Origin: Candidatus Latescibacterota bacterium
Lineage (GTDB): Bacteria; Latescibacterota; UBA2968
Direction of reading: 5' to 3'
DNA: 64,000 nt
NCBI GenBank assembly: GCA_965204745.1
Contig: OZ242010.1
Location: 5,120,001 to 5,184,000, forward strand
This document shows positions 28,371 to 50,886 of this stretch, in pieces. The stretch's first letter is position 1; each line of letters opens with the position of its first letter. Both the position numbers and the translations under genes were made by a program. The notes beneath the pieces were generated by a model. That model had not been told where the DNA came from, did no database searches, and worked only from the letters and a program-made list of their open reading frames with translations.

Positions 28371-30035
28371 ATGAACATCAACGCCAGCATTATCGATCAA
28401 AGGGTCTCGGGGATCGTGGCAGAGCATCCCCAGTGGCTACCGCCAGGACGCGACATCCCGGAAAAGAAGTCCGCGGCATTTGTCCTGCTGTGCATGTCAA
28501 CTCGCCTTGACGCCACGCTTGACGACTGCGCGGATTGGCTTACCGAGGGCGGGAATGATGCTGGCGTTGATGGCCTTCACATCGGCGAGGTCGAAGATGG
28601 CGAATTTCTCGTCACGATTTTTCAGGGCAAGTACAAAATTGACGACCTAAGTGGCAAAGCAAATTTCCCGGAAAACGGCTTGCAAAAATCTGCCAGTACC
28701 GTTCGGGTCTTGTTCGATCCCTATCGCACGGTCGGGCTGAACCCAAGAATCGCCCCCAAAATTGAAGAGATTCGCTCATTGATCCGCGATGGGTATATCC
28801 CCCATGTGCGGGTTATTCTTTGCAACAACGGCGCACGATGGACGCGCAGTGCAGACCACTGGATCGAGGATTTCGGCGACGAGGTGGAGTTCATCCACTT
28901 CAATCACGATTCCATCGTCGGCATCTTGCAGCGTAGCAAAAGAGTAGATACCACCTTGGCACTCAGCGGGCAAGCCATCGTAGAGGATATGAATTATATG
29001 CGCGTTTTGGTGGGGCGCGTTTCCGTTCAAGAAATCCAACGCTTGTTCGACGATCACGGCGACAACTTGCTAGAGCGCAATATCCGCCGCTACCTCGGCC
29101 TGCACACCAATCGCGTCAACACCGCCATTCACGCCACGCTTTGCGATCCCGATAAATCCGACAAATTCTACTTTTACAACAATGGCATTACGGCGGTTTG
29201 CGACAAGTTTGATTACAACGCCCTTCAAAAATCGGACTACATGGTGCAACTACGGAACATGCAGGTGATCAACGGAGGGCAGACCTGTAAGACGATTCAA
29301 GAAACGCTCAATAAAACTTTGCCCCACATGGTCGGCGAGGCGGCCTCTGTCATGATACGCATTTATCAGCTAACCGAAACGCAACGAGAATTGGTCCACG
29401 ACATCACCTTTGCCACCAACAGCCAGAATCCCGTGGATCTGAGGGATTTGCGGTCCAACGATGAGAGGCAAAAACAGTTGGAATTGGGTCTGTCTGAACT
29501 GGGCTATACCTATAAACGCCAGCGGGAGGAAAGCGGGAGTGGTTCGGCGGTCATCGCCAGTTCCATCGTGGCAGAAGCCGCGCTCGCGATCTGGCGGGAA
29601 AAGCCACACCAAGCCAAATTTCGCCGCAAAGACCACTTTGGCAAATTGTACGCGGACATATTCGATTCTCTCAATGCGGCCCAAGCACTGCTCGCGGTGA
29701 TGATCTTCAGAGCAGTTGAGAACGAGAGAAAGCGCCCAACAACAGCACAGCCTTCTGCCTTTCTGCCGTATGCGTCTCACTACATCGCCATGTTGATCGG
29801 CCGTGCGTTGTTATCCGATCGGGCTATCGCGCTCAGCCGGGTTTCCCATCGAAATGTTCACGCCCTCTTGCGGGCGTTTGAAGACGGGCAAGCGCGATAC
29901 CACGCAGCTGCCATAGCGGCCATTGAACGGGCGTTGAAGGCATGCTATGGCGACCGGGATGTATCGCTTCAGCAGCTATCGGCGACCTTCAGGCGCAGCG
30001 ACCTGTTGGAGATGCTCGGCAATGATCTGAGGTAG
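28371..30035 (+). CDS. AIPR family protein (abortive infection phage resistance-like)
   Basis: 'D.GVDG', 'QGKY', 'LLERNIRRYLG', 'FYFYNNGIT', 'QVINGGQT', 'TNSQN'. Confidence 0.88.
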   Translation: MNINASIIDQRVSGIVAEHPQWLPPGRDIPEKKSAAFVLLCMSTRLDATLDDCADWLTEGGNDAGVDGLHIGEVEDGEFLVTIFQGKYKIDDLSGKANFPENGLQKSASTVRVLFDPYRTVGLNPRIAPKIEEIRSLIRDGYIPHVRVILCNNGARWTRSADHWIEDFGDEVEFIHFNHDSIVGILQRSKRVDTTLALSGQAIVEDMNYMRVLVGRVSVQEIQRLFDDHGDNLLERNIRRYLGLHTNRVNTAIHATLCDPDKSDKFYFYNNGITAVCDKFDYNALQKSDYMVQLRNMQVINGGQTCKTIQETLNKTLPHMVGEAASVMIRIYQLTETQRELVHDITFATNSQNPVDLRDLRSNDERQKQLELGLSELGYTYKRQREESGSGSAVIASSIVAEAALAIWREKPHQAKFRRKDHFGKLYADIFDSLNAAQALLAVMIFRAVENERKRPTTAQPSAFLPYASHYIAMLIGRALLSDRAIALSRVSHRNVHALLRAFEDGQARYHAAAIAAIERALKACYGDRDVSLQQLSATFRRSDLLEMLGNDLR

Positions 30036-30081
30036 GATATCGCGTCCAATTTCGATAGCCCCTTCACCCCGAGGAATTTTC

Positions 30082-30591
30082 ATGCCTTATGCAGACCACA
30101 TTGAGCAGGCCAAAGACCCCGTCACCTGTGCGGTGCTCACCATCAGCGATACGCGCACCAAAGCCGATGACAAAAGCGGTCAGATCATCCGCGAATCGGT
30201 CGAAGCCGCAGGTCACAACATCGCGTTTTATCGCGTGGTAAAAGACGATGCCGCGCAGATTCGCACCCTGATCGAACAAATCGCCGTAGCGGGCGAATGC
30301 CACGTCATTCTCACCAATGGGGGCACGGGCATTGCCGCGCGCGACACCACTTATGAAGCCGTCACGAGCCTGCTCGAAAAACGCCTCGACGGATTTGGCG
30401 AAGTCTTTCGCTTTCTCTCATGGGAAGACATCGGCTCGGGGGCCATGCTCTCGCGCGCTGTTGCAGGCGTGTACAAAGACACGATGATTTTCTGCATGCC
30501 CGGCTCATCCGGCGCGGTGCGACTGGCAATGGAAAAACTCATCGTTCCCGAACTCTCACACCTCGTCTGGGAAATCTGGCGGCAAAAGTGA
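30082..30591 (+). CDS. moaB: MoaB/MogA molybdenum cofactor biosynthesis protein
   Basis: 'VLTISDTRT...DKSG', 'V.DD', 'TNGGTG...RD.T.EA', 'GFGE.FR', 'AMLSRA', 'PGS'. Confidence 0.92.
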   Translation: MPYADHIEQAKDPVTCAVLTISDTRTKADDKSGQIIRESVEAAGHNIAFYRVVKDDAAQIRTLIEQIAVAGECHVILTNGGTGIAARDTTYEAVTSLLEKRLDGFGEVFRFLSWEDIGSGAMLSRAVAGVYKDTMIFCMPGSSGAVRLAMEKLIVPELSHLVWEIWRQK

Positions 30592-30715
30592 GATGGGATT
30601 TTAGCCACGAGCGGGGTACAACTGGCGACAGCCAGTTCAAAGGCACAAAAGGCACAAAAGGGGTACAACTGGCGATAGCCAGTTCAAAGGCACAATCGGT
30701 GAGACGCAAGACGGG
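30589..30715 (+). repeat. Composite repeat (two palindromes, 9-mers, heptamers); left flank of IS110
   Basis: GTACAACTGGCGAYAGCCAGTTCAAAGGCAC x2, then GAGACGC-AAGACGG. Confidence 0.88.
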
Positions 30716-30733
30716 AGATACTCTCTTAAAAGG

Positions 30734-31741
30734 TCAAGGGGTTTTCGGGGTGATTCGATAGAATTTTTCGCCCTCAAAATCTTGGTCATGGCGCAACATG
30801 CCCCAGATCGAATGGAGCAACTTTCGCATCACCGCAACGATAGCCTGCAAAGGTTTCTTGCCGCGGGCGATGAGTTGGTCATAGAAGGCTTTGACATGGC
30901 CTTCGTGTCTGATGGCCACCCAGGCAGGCATATAGAGGGCATGGCGGAGGTACTTATTCCCGGTTTTCGAGATGCGTCTTTGTGGATTGGCGGTTCCGGA
31001 TTGTTTGGGTTTGGGATCCAGGCCTGCATGTGCGACCCACTGGGGCGGTTGCATCTCCTCTGGCAAAAGGGTCAACTCGGCCAAGAGCCGCAAGGCACTC
31101 GTTTGCGCGATGCCAGGCGTCGAGCAGAGGCGTTGGTAGGCACGCTTGAGGGGCTCATCGTGCAAAACGAGATCGAGGGCTTGGCTTTCCAAGTATGCAA
31201 TCCGGCGTTTGAAGTGTCGAATATTCACCTGAATATCGCGTGCGATGAGACGTGTGCTGCGGATGTGGTAGCTCTGCGCGTGGTTGCGGCTCTGTTCGCG
31301 GATGATCTCCTGCTTGAGTTGGTCAATGCGTCTGGTGAGGGCTTGCAGTTGAAGCCGTTGCTCGCTCGGCGCTTGCCAAGGCACAAAAGGCATGCGCTCG
31401 GCATAGTCGAGGATCAACAACGCATCCTTCGCATCCGTCTTCGCCCGTTGCATGCAGGCTTGGGCGTACTTGCTCATCGCTTTGGGATTGACGACCATGA
31501 CCTTTGTGTGGCGATGCCGATGCAAGGCCAAGGCCACCCCCAAACTGTAAAGCCCGGTCGCTTCGAGGCACACAGAGACCATGTGCCCGCCCTTCGTGAG
31601 CCACTTCAGCAACCGCTTATGCGCTTGGGGATCATTGGCAAAGGTCGCTTGCATGACAGCTTGTCCGGGTCTGGACAGGGCAACGGACAACGTGCGGGCA
31701 CTGACATCAATGCCGGCAAAAGCGGGGTGAGATTTCGACAT
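30734..31741 (-). CDS. IS110 family DEDD recombinase (bridge recombinase)
   Basis: 'GIDVS', 'CLEATG.YS', 'AKTDAKDA' (DEDD), 'L.STPGI', 'AGL.P...QSGT' (catalytic Ser), 'GNKYLR.ALY', 'A.MRKL'; GGAGG SD. Confidence 0.96.
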   Translation of the reverse strand: MSKSHPAFAGIDVSARTLSVALSRPGQAVMQATFANDPQAHKRLLKWLTKGGHMVSVCLEATGLYSLGVALALHRHRHTKVMVVNPKAMSKYAQACMQRAKTDAKDALLILDYAERMPFVPWQAPSEQRLQLQALTRRIDQLKQEIIREQSRNHAQSYHIRSTRLIARDIQVNIRHFKRRIAYLESQALDLVLHDEPLKRAYQRLCSTPGIAQTSALRLLAELTLLPEEMQPPQWVAHAGLDPKPKQSGTANPQRRISKTGNKYLRHALYMPAWVAIRHEGHVKAFYDQLIARGKKPLQAIVAVMRKLLHSIWGMLRHDQDFEGEKFYRITPKTP

Positions 31742-31784
31742 GGGGGCCTCCTGTGATGAGGGGGTTGTAAGGGATCTGGTGCGC

Positions 31785-31990
31785 GCTCGGGGTCCCGACC
31801 ATTGACGCCAAGTCTACCGGTCTTGTATATGCAGCCTCAAGGGGCTTAGATACTCTTCGGCATAGACCCGGCGGTCGGGGGGCCTATCTTACCTACAAGG
31901 TCATCGCCTTCAAGAGGGGCCGGCCTTCCCCGAGCCGGGCATCAAGATGGCTTATCTCGATACGAGGGCGCAACTCCTAATTAACCCTTA
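31785..31990 (-). ncRNA. Predicted bridge RNA (5' hairpin, target-binding loop, donor-binding loop)
   Basis: Nested stems GCTCGGGG/CCCCGAGC, CCCGACC/GGTCGGG, GTCTA/TAGAC, GGCC/GGCC; internal loops contain exact copies of donor halves (31848-31856, 31822-31828) and a target left-half match (31913-31919). Confidence 0.85.
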
Positions 31991-32003
31991 CTTCCAAGAT
32001 ACA

Positions 32004-32262
32004 AGAGGGGAGACGGGAGAGGGAAGACGGGAGAGGGGAGACGGGAGAGGCAGTAGTCAGTTGCCAGTAGTCAGTGGTCAGTCCGCCCCGCCCAACTCCC
32101 TTCGGTAAGAGGGAAGACGAGAAATACAAGAGGGAAGACGCAAGAGGGAAGACGCAAGAGGGGAGAGGGGTGGCCTTCTTGCCTCTTGCCTCTTGCCTCT
32201 CACCTCTTGCCTCTCACCTTTTTGGGCGATGCTCCCGTGCGCCCGAAGATACAAGAGGTGAG
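32004..32262 (+). repeat. Composite repeat block: (RAGASGN)n, (CAGTNGT)n, CCGCCCAACTCCCTTCGG, inverted heptamer arms
   Basis: Direct reading; 32107-32170 and 32178-32219 are opposite-strand heptamer tracts able to form a hairpin. Confidence 0.88.
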
Positions 32263-32344
32263 GCAACACCGCCCAACCGCATACCCATCCCAACACCGCC
32301 GTGTGCATTGGCGATCAGTAGTCCCTCTCTCCAAGGAAAAAATT

Positions 32345-34729
32345 ATGCACCTCTATGTGAAAATGCTCGCTCTGAGTTTCTGCTTGGTTCAAGCGGCAGA
32401 TGCGGAAACAAATTGGTCGAATTGGGGCGGGCCCAATCGAAATTTTCGGATTGACGACGCAGGCGTTTTTCCAGCCGATCAGCCCTACGCACTGCGGGTC
32501 GTTTGGAAAAAGCCGCTCGGTGCGGGATATTCGCCCGTTTCCGTGCGCGGGGATCTGGCAGTGACGATGTTTTCCGACGAAATTTTTGATTACGTCATCG
32601 CCTTCAACGCAAGAGACGGATCGGAGCGATGGAAACACGACATCGGCGCCGCGTATTTGGGGCATTACGGCTCGCAAAGCGGCCCCTTGTCAACGCCGGT
32701 TTTGACCGAGGATAAAGTCATCGCCCTAGGCCCTCGGGGCAACCTGTTCGCGCTCGATGCAAAGACGGGCGAAAAACTCTGGGCGGTCGATCTCGTTGCG
32801 GACTATGGGGCCAAAGCGCCGTTTTGGGGCTTTACCTCATCGCCGATTTTATACGACAATCGCCTGATCGTGCAAACGGGGGGTACGCACGCGATTTCGG
32901 CGTTTGACCCCGAATCCGGCGGTTTGATCTGGTCGGCCCTTGCCGATGCGGTCAATTACCAATCCCCGGGCTTGTTCGCGGTTGGCAATCGCAACCACTT
33001 GGTCTTTTTGGGCAACACCTATCTCGCGGGGCTATGGCCCGAAACCGGTGACGTACTCTGGCAATTTGCCCATCGCGGGCATACCGGCGCGGTCAACGCG
33101 AGCGGGCATCCGGTCGCGGTTGGCGAAGGCCGGTATTTTGTGAAGAACGGCGGGATGCTGGTGGGCGTGCGCGCAGATGGCGACATGTTTGCAGTTGGGG
33201 AAATTTGGCGCACGCGCCACATCCGAGGAACGTACATCGACGCGGTTTTTAATAAGGGCCTGCTGTTTGGCTACAACCGCCGCATTCTCACTTGCATCAG
33301 CGCGGACACGGGAGAACGCTTGTGGCAATCGCGCGAACCGGGCGATGGGTTGCCCATTGTCGTGGACGATCATCTCGTCATCATAACAAAAGACGGCAAA
33401 TTGGCGGTGGCACGGGCTTCGGGCGAGGGGTATCGGGAAACCGCTCGGTTGGCACTCTTTGACGATATCGCCTGGTCACACGCCAGCTTTGCCCATGGCG
33501 GGTTTTACGCGCGCAGCATGTCGGAAATCGCCCGCGTTGAGGTCATACCCGGAATCGCAACGGCAAGGGGCAAACCGGATGGGATGATGGCGAACTCGCG
33601 GTTTGCGCGCTTTGTCACAGAGGTCAATCGAGCCACCCATAAGAAAGCGCGGATCGACTCGTTTATGGCGCGGCAAAAGACCTTTCCGATTTTGGAAGGC
33701 GATCAACTCGCGCATTTTGTGTATCGCGGCGACGCGGACGAGGTAAGCGTAACGGGCGATCACACCGGGCGGCGATTCGATCAGCCCATGCGCCGCATTG
33801 AGGGAACAGATTTGTTTTATCACACGGCCCGCCTCGACGCGGACGCCCGCATCACCTATCACTATACGCTCAACTTACAGCGCGTCGTTCCGGACCCGCA
33901 CAATCCGCGACAACTTCGCTCGCTCTTTTTTGGGCGCGCCTCCTGGTTTGGGATGCCGCGCTGGCGGTTTCCCGATCATCTGAAAAAGCGGCGAGATGGG
34001 GTTCGCGGCCAAATCGATTCCCTCGGCTTTGAGAGCGCGGCGATTCCGGACTATCGCAAATTGGAGGTCTATCTGCCTGCGGGGTACGCGGAAGGCGATG
34101 ATCGCCATCCCGTTGTGTACGTCCACGCGGCGCGCCGACAGTGGTCATTGGGGAAAGTGGACGTTTCGCTGGACAATATCCTCGGCGCGAGCGTGCGACC
34201 CGTCATCGTGGTTTTTGTTCCGTCTCTTTTTGGCGGCGGATATTCCGAGTACGTGGGGGAAAAGCGCGATGCTTACCTGCGGGTTTTCACCGATGAGGTC
34301 GTGCCTTATATCGATCAGACGTATCGCACGCTCAAGCACCGCGAAGGCCGGGCAAATATGGGAACCATCTACGGCGGGTTTATGGCTTTTTACGCGACCT
34401 TTAAGCATCCGAAATTGTTTGGCAACCTCGCCATCCAATCCATGTCATGGGATCAGACCGCCGAGGCCAACGACGCCGCGCTGGTCTTTGAGGCGTCATC
34501 CCAATGGCCGATGAAAATTTATTTGGACTGGGGAAAGTACGATTTGCGAAGCCCAATGGAGGGCAATGACTTGGGCGAGAGCACGGCGTCCTTTGCGCGC
34601 CTGCTGCACGCCAAGGGATACGCGTTCACAGGCGGCGAAGTCAACGACGGCGCGGGTTGGGCGAGTTGGCGAAACCGCACAGACGAGGTGTTTGAGGCAC
34701 TCTTTCCTTCGGTGAGACGTAAGAGGTGA
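32345..34729 (+). CDS. Secreted PQQ-like beta-propeller protein fused to an enterochelin-esterase-like alpha/beta hydrolase domain
   Basis: Signal peptide, 'W..W.GP.RN', repeated 'A.DA.TG..LW'; then 'D.R..Y.Y', 'DP.NP', 'VYLPAGY', 'EVVPYID..YR'. Confidence 0.78.
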   Translation: MHLYVKMLALSFCLVQAADAETNWSNWGGPNRNFRIDDAGVFPADQPYALRVVWKKPLGAGYSPVSVRGDLAVTMFSDEIFDYVIAFNARDGSERWKHDIGAAYLGHYGSQSGPLSTPVLTEDKVIALGPRGNLFALDAKTGEKLWAVDLVADYGAKAPFWGFTSSPILYDNRLIVQTGGTHAISAFDPESGGLIWSALADAVNYQSPGLFAVGNRNHLVFLGNTYLAGLWPETGDVLWQFAHRGHTGAVNASGHPVAVGEGRYFVKNGGMLVGVRADGDMFAVGEIWRTRHIRGTYIDAVFNKGLLFGYNRRILTCISADTGERLWQSREPGDGLPIVVDDHLVIITKDGKLAVARASGEGYRETARLALFDDIAWSHASFAHGGFYARSMSEIARVEVIPGIATARGKPDGMMANSRFARFVTEVNRATHKKARIDSFMARQKTFPILEGDQLAHFVYRGDADEVSVTGDHTGRRFDQPMRRIEGTDLFYHTARLDADARITYHYTLNLQRVVPDPHNPRQLRSLFFGRASWFGMPRWRFPDHLKKRRDGVRGQIDSLGFESAAIPDYRKLEVYLPAGYAEGDDRHPVVYVHAARRQWSLGKVDVSLDNILGASVRPVIVVFVPSLFGGGYSEYVGEKRDAYLRVFTDEVVPYIDQTYRTLKHREGRANMGTIYGGFMAFYATFKHPKLFGNLAIQSMSWDQTAEANDAALVFEASSQWPMKIYLDWGKYDLRSPMEGNDLGESTASFARLLHAKGYAFTGGEVNDGAGWASWRNRTDEVFEALFPSVRRKR

Positions 34730-47504: not shown

Positions 47505-47540
47505 TCCCCCTTGTATCTCCCCTCTTGCCTCTCCCGCCTC
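47505..47540 (-). repeat. Heptamer module immediately after a stop codon
   Basis: rc GAGGCGGGAGAGGCAAGAGGGGAGATACAAGGGG. Confidence 0.75.
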
Positions 47541-50824: not shown

Positions 50825-50886
50825 CCGCCTAACCCCCTTCGGGAAGAGGGAAGACGGGAGAGGTGAGAGGCAAGAGGGGTAGGTCC
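50825..50886 (+). repeat. Composite repeat (CCGCCTAACCCCCTTCGG + heptamers + GGTAGGTCC)
   Basis: Matches 32089-32119 and the REPIN end at 62085-62094. Confidence 0.75.

Follow-up and report, generated by a model that had tools for sequence, protein, structure and literature searches.

We analyzed an insertion sequence (IS) of the IS110 group that occupies positions 30718 to 32003, on the minus strand, of a 64,000-nt stretch of DNA, hereafter called the window (G000:C1:5120001-5184000). The host genome, G000, is a single 5.48-Mb contig, and positions below are window positions unless they are given for a contig or a genome. The element is 1286 bp long, with boundaries set by blastn against its own genome at the points where its copies cease to be alike, and it sits in a tract of 7-bp tandem repeats (heptamers). 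Upstream lies a plus-strand gene for a MoaB-type molybdopterin-binding protein (moaB, 30082-30591), and downstream is a gene for a fusion of a PQQ beta-propeller and an esterase (32186-34729). The single open reading frame (ORF) of the element, at 30734 to 31741 on the minus strand, encodes a 335-aa recombinase that combines a DEDD RuvC-like domain with a Tnp domain, as found with Pfam and phmmer. The non-coding ends measure 262 nt on the left (31742 to 32003, minus strand) and 16 nt past the stop codon on the right.

The recombinase belongs to the IS110 family, IS110 group, given that its matches to PF01548 (DEDD_Tnp_IS110; E 1.2e-24, residues 9-154) and PF02371 (Transposase_20; E 4.8e-20, residues 203-287) both exceed the curated cut-offs. 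It is homologous, by phmmer, to the solved recombinases of IS621 (8wt6, E 5.8e-36) and ISCro4 (9t56, E 7.6e-40). In the alignment to 8wt6, where the chain index is the residue number plus 2, D12, E60, D103, D106, and S248-G249 of the recombinase align to D11, E60, D102, D105, and S241-G242 of IS621. One IS621 study (PMC11208158) describes D11, E60, D102, D105, and S241 as essential or catalytic.

The element is flanked on both sides by AG, which is CT on the transposase strand. The junction sequences, together with the core definition in a second IS621 study (PMC11208160), identify these as copies of the core dinucleotide at the left junction (32004 to 32005, minus strand) and, by its junction sequence, at the right junction (30716 to 30717, minus strand). 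Because target and donor overlap over TCTT, the exchange point is placed here provisionally, by analogy with IS621. On the left-target side lies a heptamer tract (32006 to 32052) that forms seven strict units when the core copy is included (32004-32052), and on the right-target side lies a tract remnant, GAGACGC AAGACGG G (30701 to 30715). If the element and one AG are deleted, the flanks join as GAGACGC AAGACGG GAGAGGG GAGACGG GAGAGGG AAGACGG GAGAGGG GAGACGG GAGAGGC, an unbroken register that can be read directly and that agrees with the series written out in an earlier, sequence-only reading of this DNA. There is no target duplication beyond the shared core, given that removal of the element and one CT gives the register back.

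The terminal sequences, TGTATCTTGG... and ...AGAGAGTAT, are not inverted repeats by eye, a comparison made without a formal scan. The right end contains a -35-like hexamer, TTGACC (30732 to 30737, minus strand), which overlaps the recombinase stop codon. On a circle junction, this hexamer would stand 18 nt upstream of the left-end TATCTT (31996-32001); a promoter rebuilt across joined ends is reported for IS621 (PMC11208158).

Landing sites in the heptamer tracts of the host genome

A blastn search of the element against the host genome returned 52 matches longer than 1250 bp at 88-100% identity, plus fragments. Fifty full copies carry both junction anchors. The exact end anchors also mark solo ends, 8 of them left and 5 right; two of the right ones belong to full-length copies with small changes in the left end. 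Together, the 50 copies amount to 64.5 kb, or 1.2% of the genome, and 49 of them keep an ORF of at least 335 aa. We regard the element as a marker of very recent IS expansion in the genome of an uncultured group. Read in recombinase orientation, every one of the 50 copies has the same junction layout, left flank-CT-TGTATCTTGG... ...TTAAGAGAGTAT-CT-right flank, with a left end that begins TGTAT and a right end that closes in ...GAGAGTAT and is followed by CT. The flanks have the consensus CCCCT-CT-[IS]-CT-T(A/G)CCT in transposase orientation, with position counts over the 50 sites of C44 C41 C50 C50 T50 - C50 T50 - T47 A31/G17 C50 C43 T49. A 7-bp periodicity persists outside these twelve target positions (T48 at -6, C45 at -7, C46 at +6, and T48 at +7). 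The guide described below has no complementarity outside the twelve positions, therefore we interpret this periodic signal as tract context rather than recognition.

We defined a strict tract as at least three in-register units, (YNCNTCT)n or (AGANGNR)n. The host genome contains 627 strict tracts, each 3 to 49 units long and together making up 0.44% of the sequence, compared to 14 in a reversed-genome control. When the empty sites of the 50 copies are rebuilt, 46 have at least one strict in-register unit (YNCNTCT) on each side, and 42 have three or more units in all; the other 8 are mostly degenerate tract edges. According to our own rough gene calls, the 50 copies all stand between genes. The 12-bp target amounts to a pair of neighbouring repeat units, and for this reason nearly all landing sites fall within a tract, in register, and in intergenic DNA. 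The sequence-only reading had claimed that the target loop of the element points at the heptamer family and that this gives it harmless landing sites. Its central claim withstood the collection of insertion sites, both as tract enrichment (46 of 50 sites in register against the genome cover given above) and with regard to insertions outside tracts or off the CCCCTCT motif, and the intergenic position of all copies agrees with its view of the sites as harmless.

With Tandem Repeats Finder, we detected 1738 arrays in the host genome, including 533 with period 7, 228 with period 14, and 133 with period 21. Two heptamer families dominate, the CAGTNGT type with about 303 period-7 arrays and the RAGAGGN type with about 210, and the IS uses only the RAGAGGN type. 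Throughout the genome, and in the window at 32053-32085, (CAGTNGT)n often immediately follows an AGAGG-type tract, with a GC-rich motif (CAGTCCGCCCCGCC) next in line; the IS is never found in this family. The description of the target repeat as non-palindromic is mostly right: an inverted partner lies within 40 bp of only 28 of the 627 tracts, a count that uses the strict unit definition and would miss degenerate partners, and some tracts form long hairpins. One such hairpin is in the window at 32129-32230, where an AGAGG-type tract is followed by its inverted copy, the loop GGTGGCCTTC, and a T-run, with arms as at 32129-32214. In its sequence, this hairpin looks like an intrinsic terminator.

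The position of the tracts relative to genes was assessed with rough calls based on codon-usage-scored ORFs (3698 genes, 83% coding), and 104 of the 627 tracts were dropped because more than half of their length lay inside an ORF. The remaining 523 tracts fall into the intergenic classes ++ (181), -- (170), +- (91), and -+ (81), against a baseline of 1175, 1015, 433, and 454, respectively, and the IS copies are divided as ++ (19), -- (14), -+ (10), and +- (7). These are approximately baseline proportions; within the limits of such gene calls, neither the 523 tracts nor the 50 copies are enriched at gene 3' ends. The proposal that the target repeat is located after stop codons is true of this locus and of many others, but it is not a rule, given that 10 of the 50 copies lie between divergent genes. 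In 290 of 442 tracts, the purine strand is the one that is sense for the nearest 3'-facing gene, and in 28 of 40 cases the recombinase gene runs antisense to the nearest such gene, a bias that looks like a by-product of tract orientation.

Some copies show changes at their ends or close spacing. At G000:C1:1121591-1124187, two IS copies stand in tandem with one heptamer unit (TACCTCT) between them, and the second copy used the unit left beside the right end of the first. At G000:C1:2459534, TGTATCT is duplicated just ahead of a solo left end, indicating that 7-bp changes at element ends do occur. At least part of the stretch is present in 19 of the 20 public runs listed for it, in every case as Logan contigs, and these runs are labelled as sponge metagenomes; none of the listed pieces covers the whole stretch. 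In the four runs that we examined, contigs break inside repeats, and the listed joints have sides of only 21-39 letters, within repeats.

Predicted bridge RNA guides and their natural targets

The left non-coding end is predicted to encode a bridge RNA with a 5' hairpin, a target-binding stem-loop, and a donor-binding stem-loop, based on a single-sequence fold and on a consensus fold of 12 variants. We located four guides in it, all on the minus strand. The left target guide, CCCCTCT (31913 to 31919), has the top-strand sequence of the left target and core, and the right target guide, AGGTAAG (31888 to 31894), complements the core plus right target (CT-TACCT). The left donor guide, GAGTATCT (31848 to 31855), is identical to the terminal 6 nt of the right end together with the core, and the right donor guide, ATACAAG (31822 to 31828), complements the core and the opening 5 nt of the left end (CT-TGTAT). 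This strand logic is the same as the rule published for IS621, in which left guides pair with the bottom strand and right guides with the top strand, with the core in each (PMC11208160), and it gives the element the layout of a bridge RNA. The target derived from the guides is CCCCT-CT-TACCT, or TGCCT in the right arm with a G:U wobble, exactly as the sequence-only reading had predicted. In the minimum-energy fold, the two target guides face each other across one internal loop and the two donor guides across the next, after the 5' hairpin. In the consensus fold, whose variants come from three genomes, the closing stem and the distal hairpin of each loop are preserved, and positions in the target loop vary.

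The guides can be compared with the flanks of each copy. In the host genome, 44 copies carry the guides CCCCTCT and AGGTAAG; their left flanks are CCCCT-CT in 40 copies and TACCT-CT in 4, and their right flanks are TACCT (24), TGCCT (16), CCCGT (2), TGCCC (1), and TACTT (1), such that 40 of 44 left arms and 40 of 44 right arms fit the guides. Five copies form a sub-family at 88% identity with the guides CGCCTCT (four copies) or TGCCTCT (one copy), together with AAGTAAG. The left flanks of this sub-family are CGCCT (3), CACCT (1), and, in the TGCCTCT copy, TACCT (1), and its right flanks are TACTT (4) and TACCT (1). The copy at genome position 1297034 has the guides TCCCTCT and AGGTGAG and the flanks TCCCT-CT-CACCT, with both arms perfect.

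Among 31 genomes, the IS lineage is present at the DNA level only in the host and in two relatives, G016 and G018. The 18 copies in G018 (79% identity) have the guides CGCCTCT and GGGAG, and their flanks, which are mostly heptamer units, read YRCCT-CT on the left in 18 of 18 and CT-CCC on the right in 16 of 18 (CCCGT in 14). The seven copies in G016 (84% identity) have the guides TCCTCCT or TCCCCCT with AGAAAAG (6 of 7; AGGAAAG in one), and their flanks, which are not heptamer tracts, end in ...C-CT on the left and read CT-TTTCT on the right in 6 of 7. All three genomes have the same left donor guide, the right donor guide is one position off in G016 and G018, and the element ends are nearly constant. 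The predicted target-loop guides covary with the natural insertion sites across five guide states in the three genomes, and this covariation is the strongest evidence for RNA-guided targeting. Three to four of the seven G016 copies (L002, L012, L014, L016, L018, L020, and L022) were observed in another repeated context, with left ...GAGATGTTCT(G/T)CC and right TTTCTCG.(A/C)GGGAGG...GATTCCCC, which looks like a palindrome of the repetitive extragenic palindrome (REP) type.

We consider it very likely that the element is one of about 50 IS110-group copies that insert by bridge-RNA-guided recombination, and this high confidence covers, jointly with the mechanism as a whole, the assignment of the four guides to a predicted bridge RNA of the IS110-group type. 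The left non-coding end would encode the bridge RNA, the target-binding loop would pair with the junction of two (YNCNTCT)n or (AGANGNR)n units, and the donor-binding loop would pair with the joined element ends (GAGTAT-CT-TGTAT). By analogy with IS621, the RNA would be made, a circular intermediate would rebuild a promoter, and the recombinase would use the RNA as the IS621 recombinase does.

Several observations weigh against this interpretation. The single-sequence fold is not better than shuffled sequences (z = -1.35), and compensatory changes occur in only 2 of the 42 pairs of the consensus fold; given these two values, the predicted structure is grounded mainly in conservation and in the analogy to IS621. 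A scan of window 30000-33000 against Rfam matched no family to the left end at E up to 1, and all that it returned were microRNA models below threshold, placed on the heptamer hairpin at 32120-32224. Among the 44 copies with the main guides, four have two mismatches on the left, and another four, including the window copy, have one to three on the right. Left flanks in G016 match their own guide only loosely. The copies share descent and come from three related genomes, so the covariation should be counted as about five independent guide states rather than 75 observations. Finally, the available public runs are of DNA or of unspecified kind, and the bridge RNA is a prediction from sequence.

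The weak fold score, and the fact that the bridge RNA is known here from DNA alone, would also be expected if the recombinase protein by itself read the heptamer junction and the complementarity in the left end were coincidental or served another role. We give this explanation very little credence. The five guide states shift with the flanks on both arms, yet the left donor guide stays the same and the donor ends vary little; moreover, the strand logic is exactly that of IS621, and the recombinase is a clear IS621 homologue with the same catalytic residues.

The distribution of tracts among the genomes bears on whether the element follows the repeats or makes them. Tracts of four AGAGGNR units number 527 in the host, 219 in G018, and one each in G001 and G017, and there are none in the other 27 relatives, G016 included. 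The tract-rich host and G018 carry tract-directed guides and the guide of tract-poor G016 is directed differently, such that host repeats track the guides. This co-occurrence of tract-rich genomes and tract-targeting variants could also arise if the element made or carried heptamer units, or if it spread among tracts by homologous recombination, and the ends of the element (AGTATCT and TGTATCT) are themselves heptamer-like. We find such an origin highly improbable, however, because there are 627 tracts for about 50 copies, with most tracts unoccupied; the length and unit order of the flanking tract differ at every copy; and the junction falls at the same dinucleotide in 50 of 50 copies. In addition, the end units (GTATCT) are not the tract unit and are unchanged in G016, where the target is no heptamer tract, and TGTATCT is judged not to be over-represented in the host genome (507 occurrences, 53 of them IS left ends, against a permutation median of 401.5). 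Given the unoccupied tracts and the end units that are unlike the tract unit, we infer that the element follows the host repeats rather than making them.

We considered TGTATCT units as possible excision scars and rejected this, given that the commonest context other than IS left ends, with approximately 30 occurrences, is part of another host repeat with no right-target unit after it, and that the 7-mer is not over-represented. This recurrent host motif, tract-TGTATCT-T(T/C)GGGCG...CGCCCAAAAAGG, occurs at window 32225-32262 and in about 30 other places in the genome. It has about 14 bases in common with the left junction of the IS (CCCCTCT TGTATCT T) before it diverges, and it could be a donor-like pseudo-site or a coincidence.

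Beyond the occupied sites, the host genome contains 70 free 12-mer target sites, of which 64 overlap a tract, 58 of them over their full length; no such site is present in the reversed genome, a contrast well outside what chance would give. Of the full Watson-Crick 12-mer, CCCCTCTTACCT, 20 sites are occupied and 5 are free; of the wobble 12-mer, CCCCTCTTGCCT, 16 are occupied and 65 are free. The Watson-Crick site is preferred over the wobble site, and the occupancies of 80% and 20%, respectively, provide a measure within one genome of the cost of a G:U wobble. The window itself holds only two matches, each with in-register heptamer units after it and each of the sequence CCCCTCTTGCCT. One, at 47519 to 47530 on the plus strand, is of the wobble type and lies where two strict units follow a TGTATCT unit; the other, at 50868 to 50879 on the minus strand, is at the edge of a 5-unit strict tract (50845-50879). 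The sequence-only reading had placed both unoccupied matches inside the repeat family; the matches and the units after them are as it described, but a strict tract is present only at the second.

These site counts suggest, tentatively, that the IS lineage and the fast-changing microsatellite form a tracking system, in which the best junctions saturate and sub-lineages may escape by changing one or two guide bases, which would make further unit junctions within that repeat family available. We hold this view at less than even confidence and draw it from four observations: the saturation of CCCCTCTTACCT sites (20 of 25 occupied) relative to wobble sites (16 of 81), the 37 free copies of the site of the 88% sub-family, C(G/A)CCTCTTACTT, the retuned junction in G018, and the non-tract repeat in G016. 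If it is true, tandem repeats would form a class of their own among the safe harbours for RNA-guided elements, one that renews itself; target sites would continually arise and be lost by slippage, and competition for sites would drive guide diversification within a single genome.

The window copy and its locus

The window copy has a poor right half, as the sequence-only reading had noticed. Its first unit past the core, CCCGTCT, misfits the right target guide, and CT-CCCGT is off the guide at 3 of 5 positions. One explanation is a one-arm, or half-match, off-target insertion that used only the left arm and core. According to a preprint (10.64898/2026.08.31.748434), IS621 can recombine in vitro when just one arm matches along with the core, and many off-target insertions are explained in this way. 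Here, the copy at genome position 1928662 has the same right half and a perfect left half, and four copies present the mirror case, a left TACCT with two mismatches beside a perfect right half. All six strongly mismatched copies keep one perfect arm, and the other two have a single right-arm mismatch each. A one-arm insertion fits the pattern of the window copy with no later change. One IS621 study (PMC11208160), however, reports low tolerance of mismatches in pooled screens, and both CCCGT cases share the bases that follow (CTTGC), which could mean a shared later event. On balance, we give a one-arm insertion about an even chance.

Alternatively, the window copy may have landed on-target and later lost one TRCCTCT unit beside its right end by replication slippage, a variant of the 7-bp slippage that the sequence-only reading had suggested. 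Tract length is very variable (3 to 49 units), the element end (GTATCT) shares TCT with every unit and so offers microhomology for an in-phase 7-bp loss, and the duplicated TGTATCT at the solo left end described above is a precedent for 7-bp end changes. Against this, no allele with an extra unit was seen, and the public contigs, which break in repeats, are silent on the junction. We treat slippage as possible, though on the doubtful side.

The window copy also differs from the majority form of the element (1291 bp) in being 5 nt shorter. At window 31791, 5 nt are gone (GCGAC by alignment; GTCGC on the plus strand) that 49 of the 50 copies keep, and GTCGC is present behind this position in all four public runs examined as contigs, which makes the gap peculiar to the window copy. 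The gap sits between the donor loop and the recombinase start and removes an upstream in-frame ATG that, where kept, stretches the ORF to 357 aa (33 copies).

We compared the locus in eight relatives, none of which has an IS between moaB and the PQQ/esterase gene. The two genes are neighbours, approximately 35-140 bp apart, in seven of the eight (G004, G006, G008, G013, G015, G016, and G017); the gap is approximately 240 bp in G010. In G001, they are approximately 114 kb apart. The closest relatives by MoaB identity are G016 and G018, both at 95%. In G016, the moaB stop codon is followed at once by two AGAGG-type units, then by CAGTNGT-like units and by the GC-rich motif that is also present in the host. 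Because these tract units come right after the stop codon, a short tract there predates the insertion, and this comparison of empty alleles downstream of moaB, which the sequence-only reading had proposed, is in line with its interpretation. The host region downstream of moaB appears to have grown by tract expansion, by another small repeat, and by the IS. The small repeat occupies the interval between the moaB stop codon and the tract (window 30593-30700), which contains two copies of GGGGTACAACTGGCGA(C/T)AGCCAGTTCAAAGGCACAA with AAAGGCAC repeats; it is also seen in the flanks of other IS copies, and the bins that include it (30584-30725) have by far the highest summed contig depth in the four public runs.

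Comparison with known IS110 elements

By its predicted mechanism, the element works like IS621 of Escherichia coli, showing every family feature that could be tested here. Compared with the published description of IS621 (PMC11208160, PMC11208158), both have a recombinase that joins a DEDD RuvC-like to a Tnp domain and has the same five catalytic residues, and in both the left end is long and the right end short. They also share a two-loop bridge RNA in the left end (predicted for the window element), a CT core in the guides, one natural target position read via a wobble-like mismatch, and the targeting of a host repeat family in intergenic DNA. They differ in that the window element targets the junction of 7-bp tandem-repeat units with arms of 5 + 2 + 5 nt, whereas IS621 targets a repetitive extragenic palindrome and has a natural 11-bp target of 7 + 2 + 2. 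The window element also has a much higher copy number (50 full copies, 1.2% of the genome) and three guide variants that coexist in one genome, and its recombinase is only distantly matched to that of IS621 (phmmer E 5.8e-36).

Other members of the family are also confined to repeated sequences. ISPpu9 and ISPpu10 of Pseudomonas putida resemble the window element in that all copies are reported to lie in one repeated intergenic sequence; their targets are palindromic (REP) or stem-loop, and the stem-loop itself is reported as a specificity determinant of ISPpu10, whereas the target of the window element is a linear tandem repeat with inverted partners at 28 of 627 tracts. Elements of the IS1111 group, which insert into integron attC sites or Tn21 inverted repeats, belong to the same family and likewise insert site-specifically into a repeated element (PMC11208160), but their bridge RNA is in the right end and they have long subterminal inverted repeats; the window element, with its RNA in the left end, has the IS110-group layout.

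A literature search that was not exhaustive turned up no paper on an IS110 element with a microsatellite as its target; among the papers listed, only a meningococcus review mentions both IS110 and microsatellites, and survey supplements may list such cases. The mechanism itself is known, and our mechanistic understanding of it is unchanged; what is unreported is the target class, which extends the natural targets of IS110 elements from palindromic REPs, attC sites, and transposon ends to a non-palindromic tandem microsatellite. With three guide variants in one closed genome and two more guide states in sister genomes, the element provides a clean natural demonstration of the programmability of bridge RNAs.

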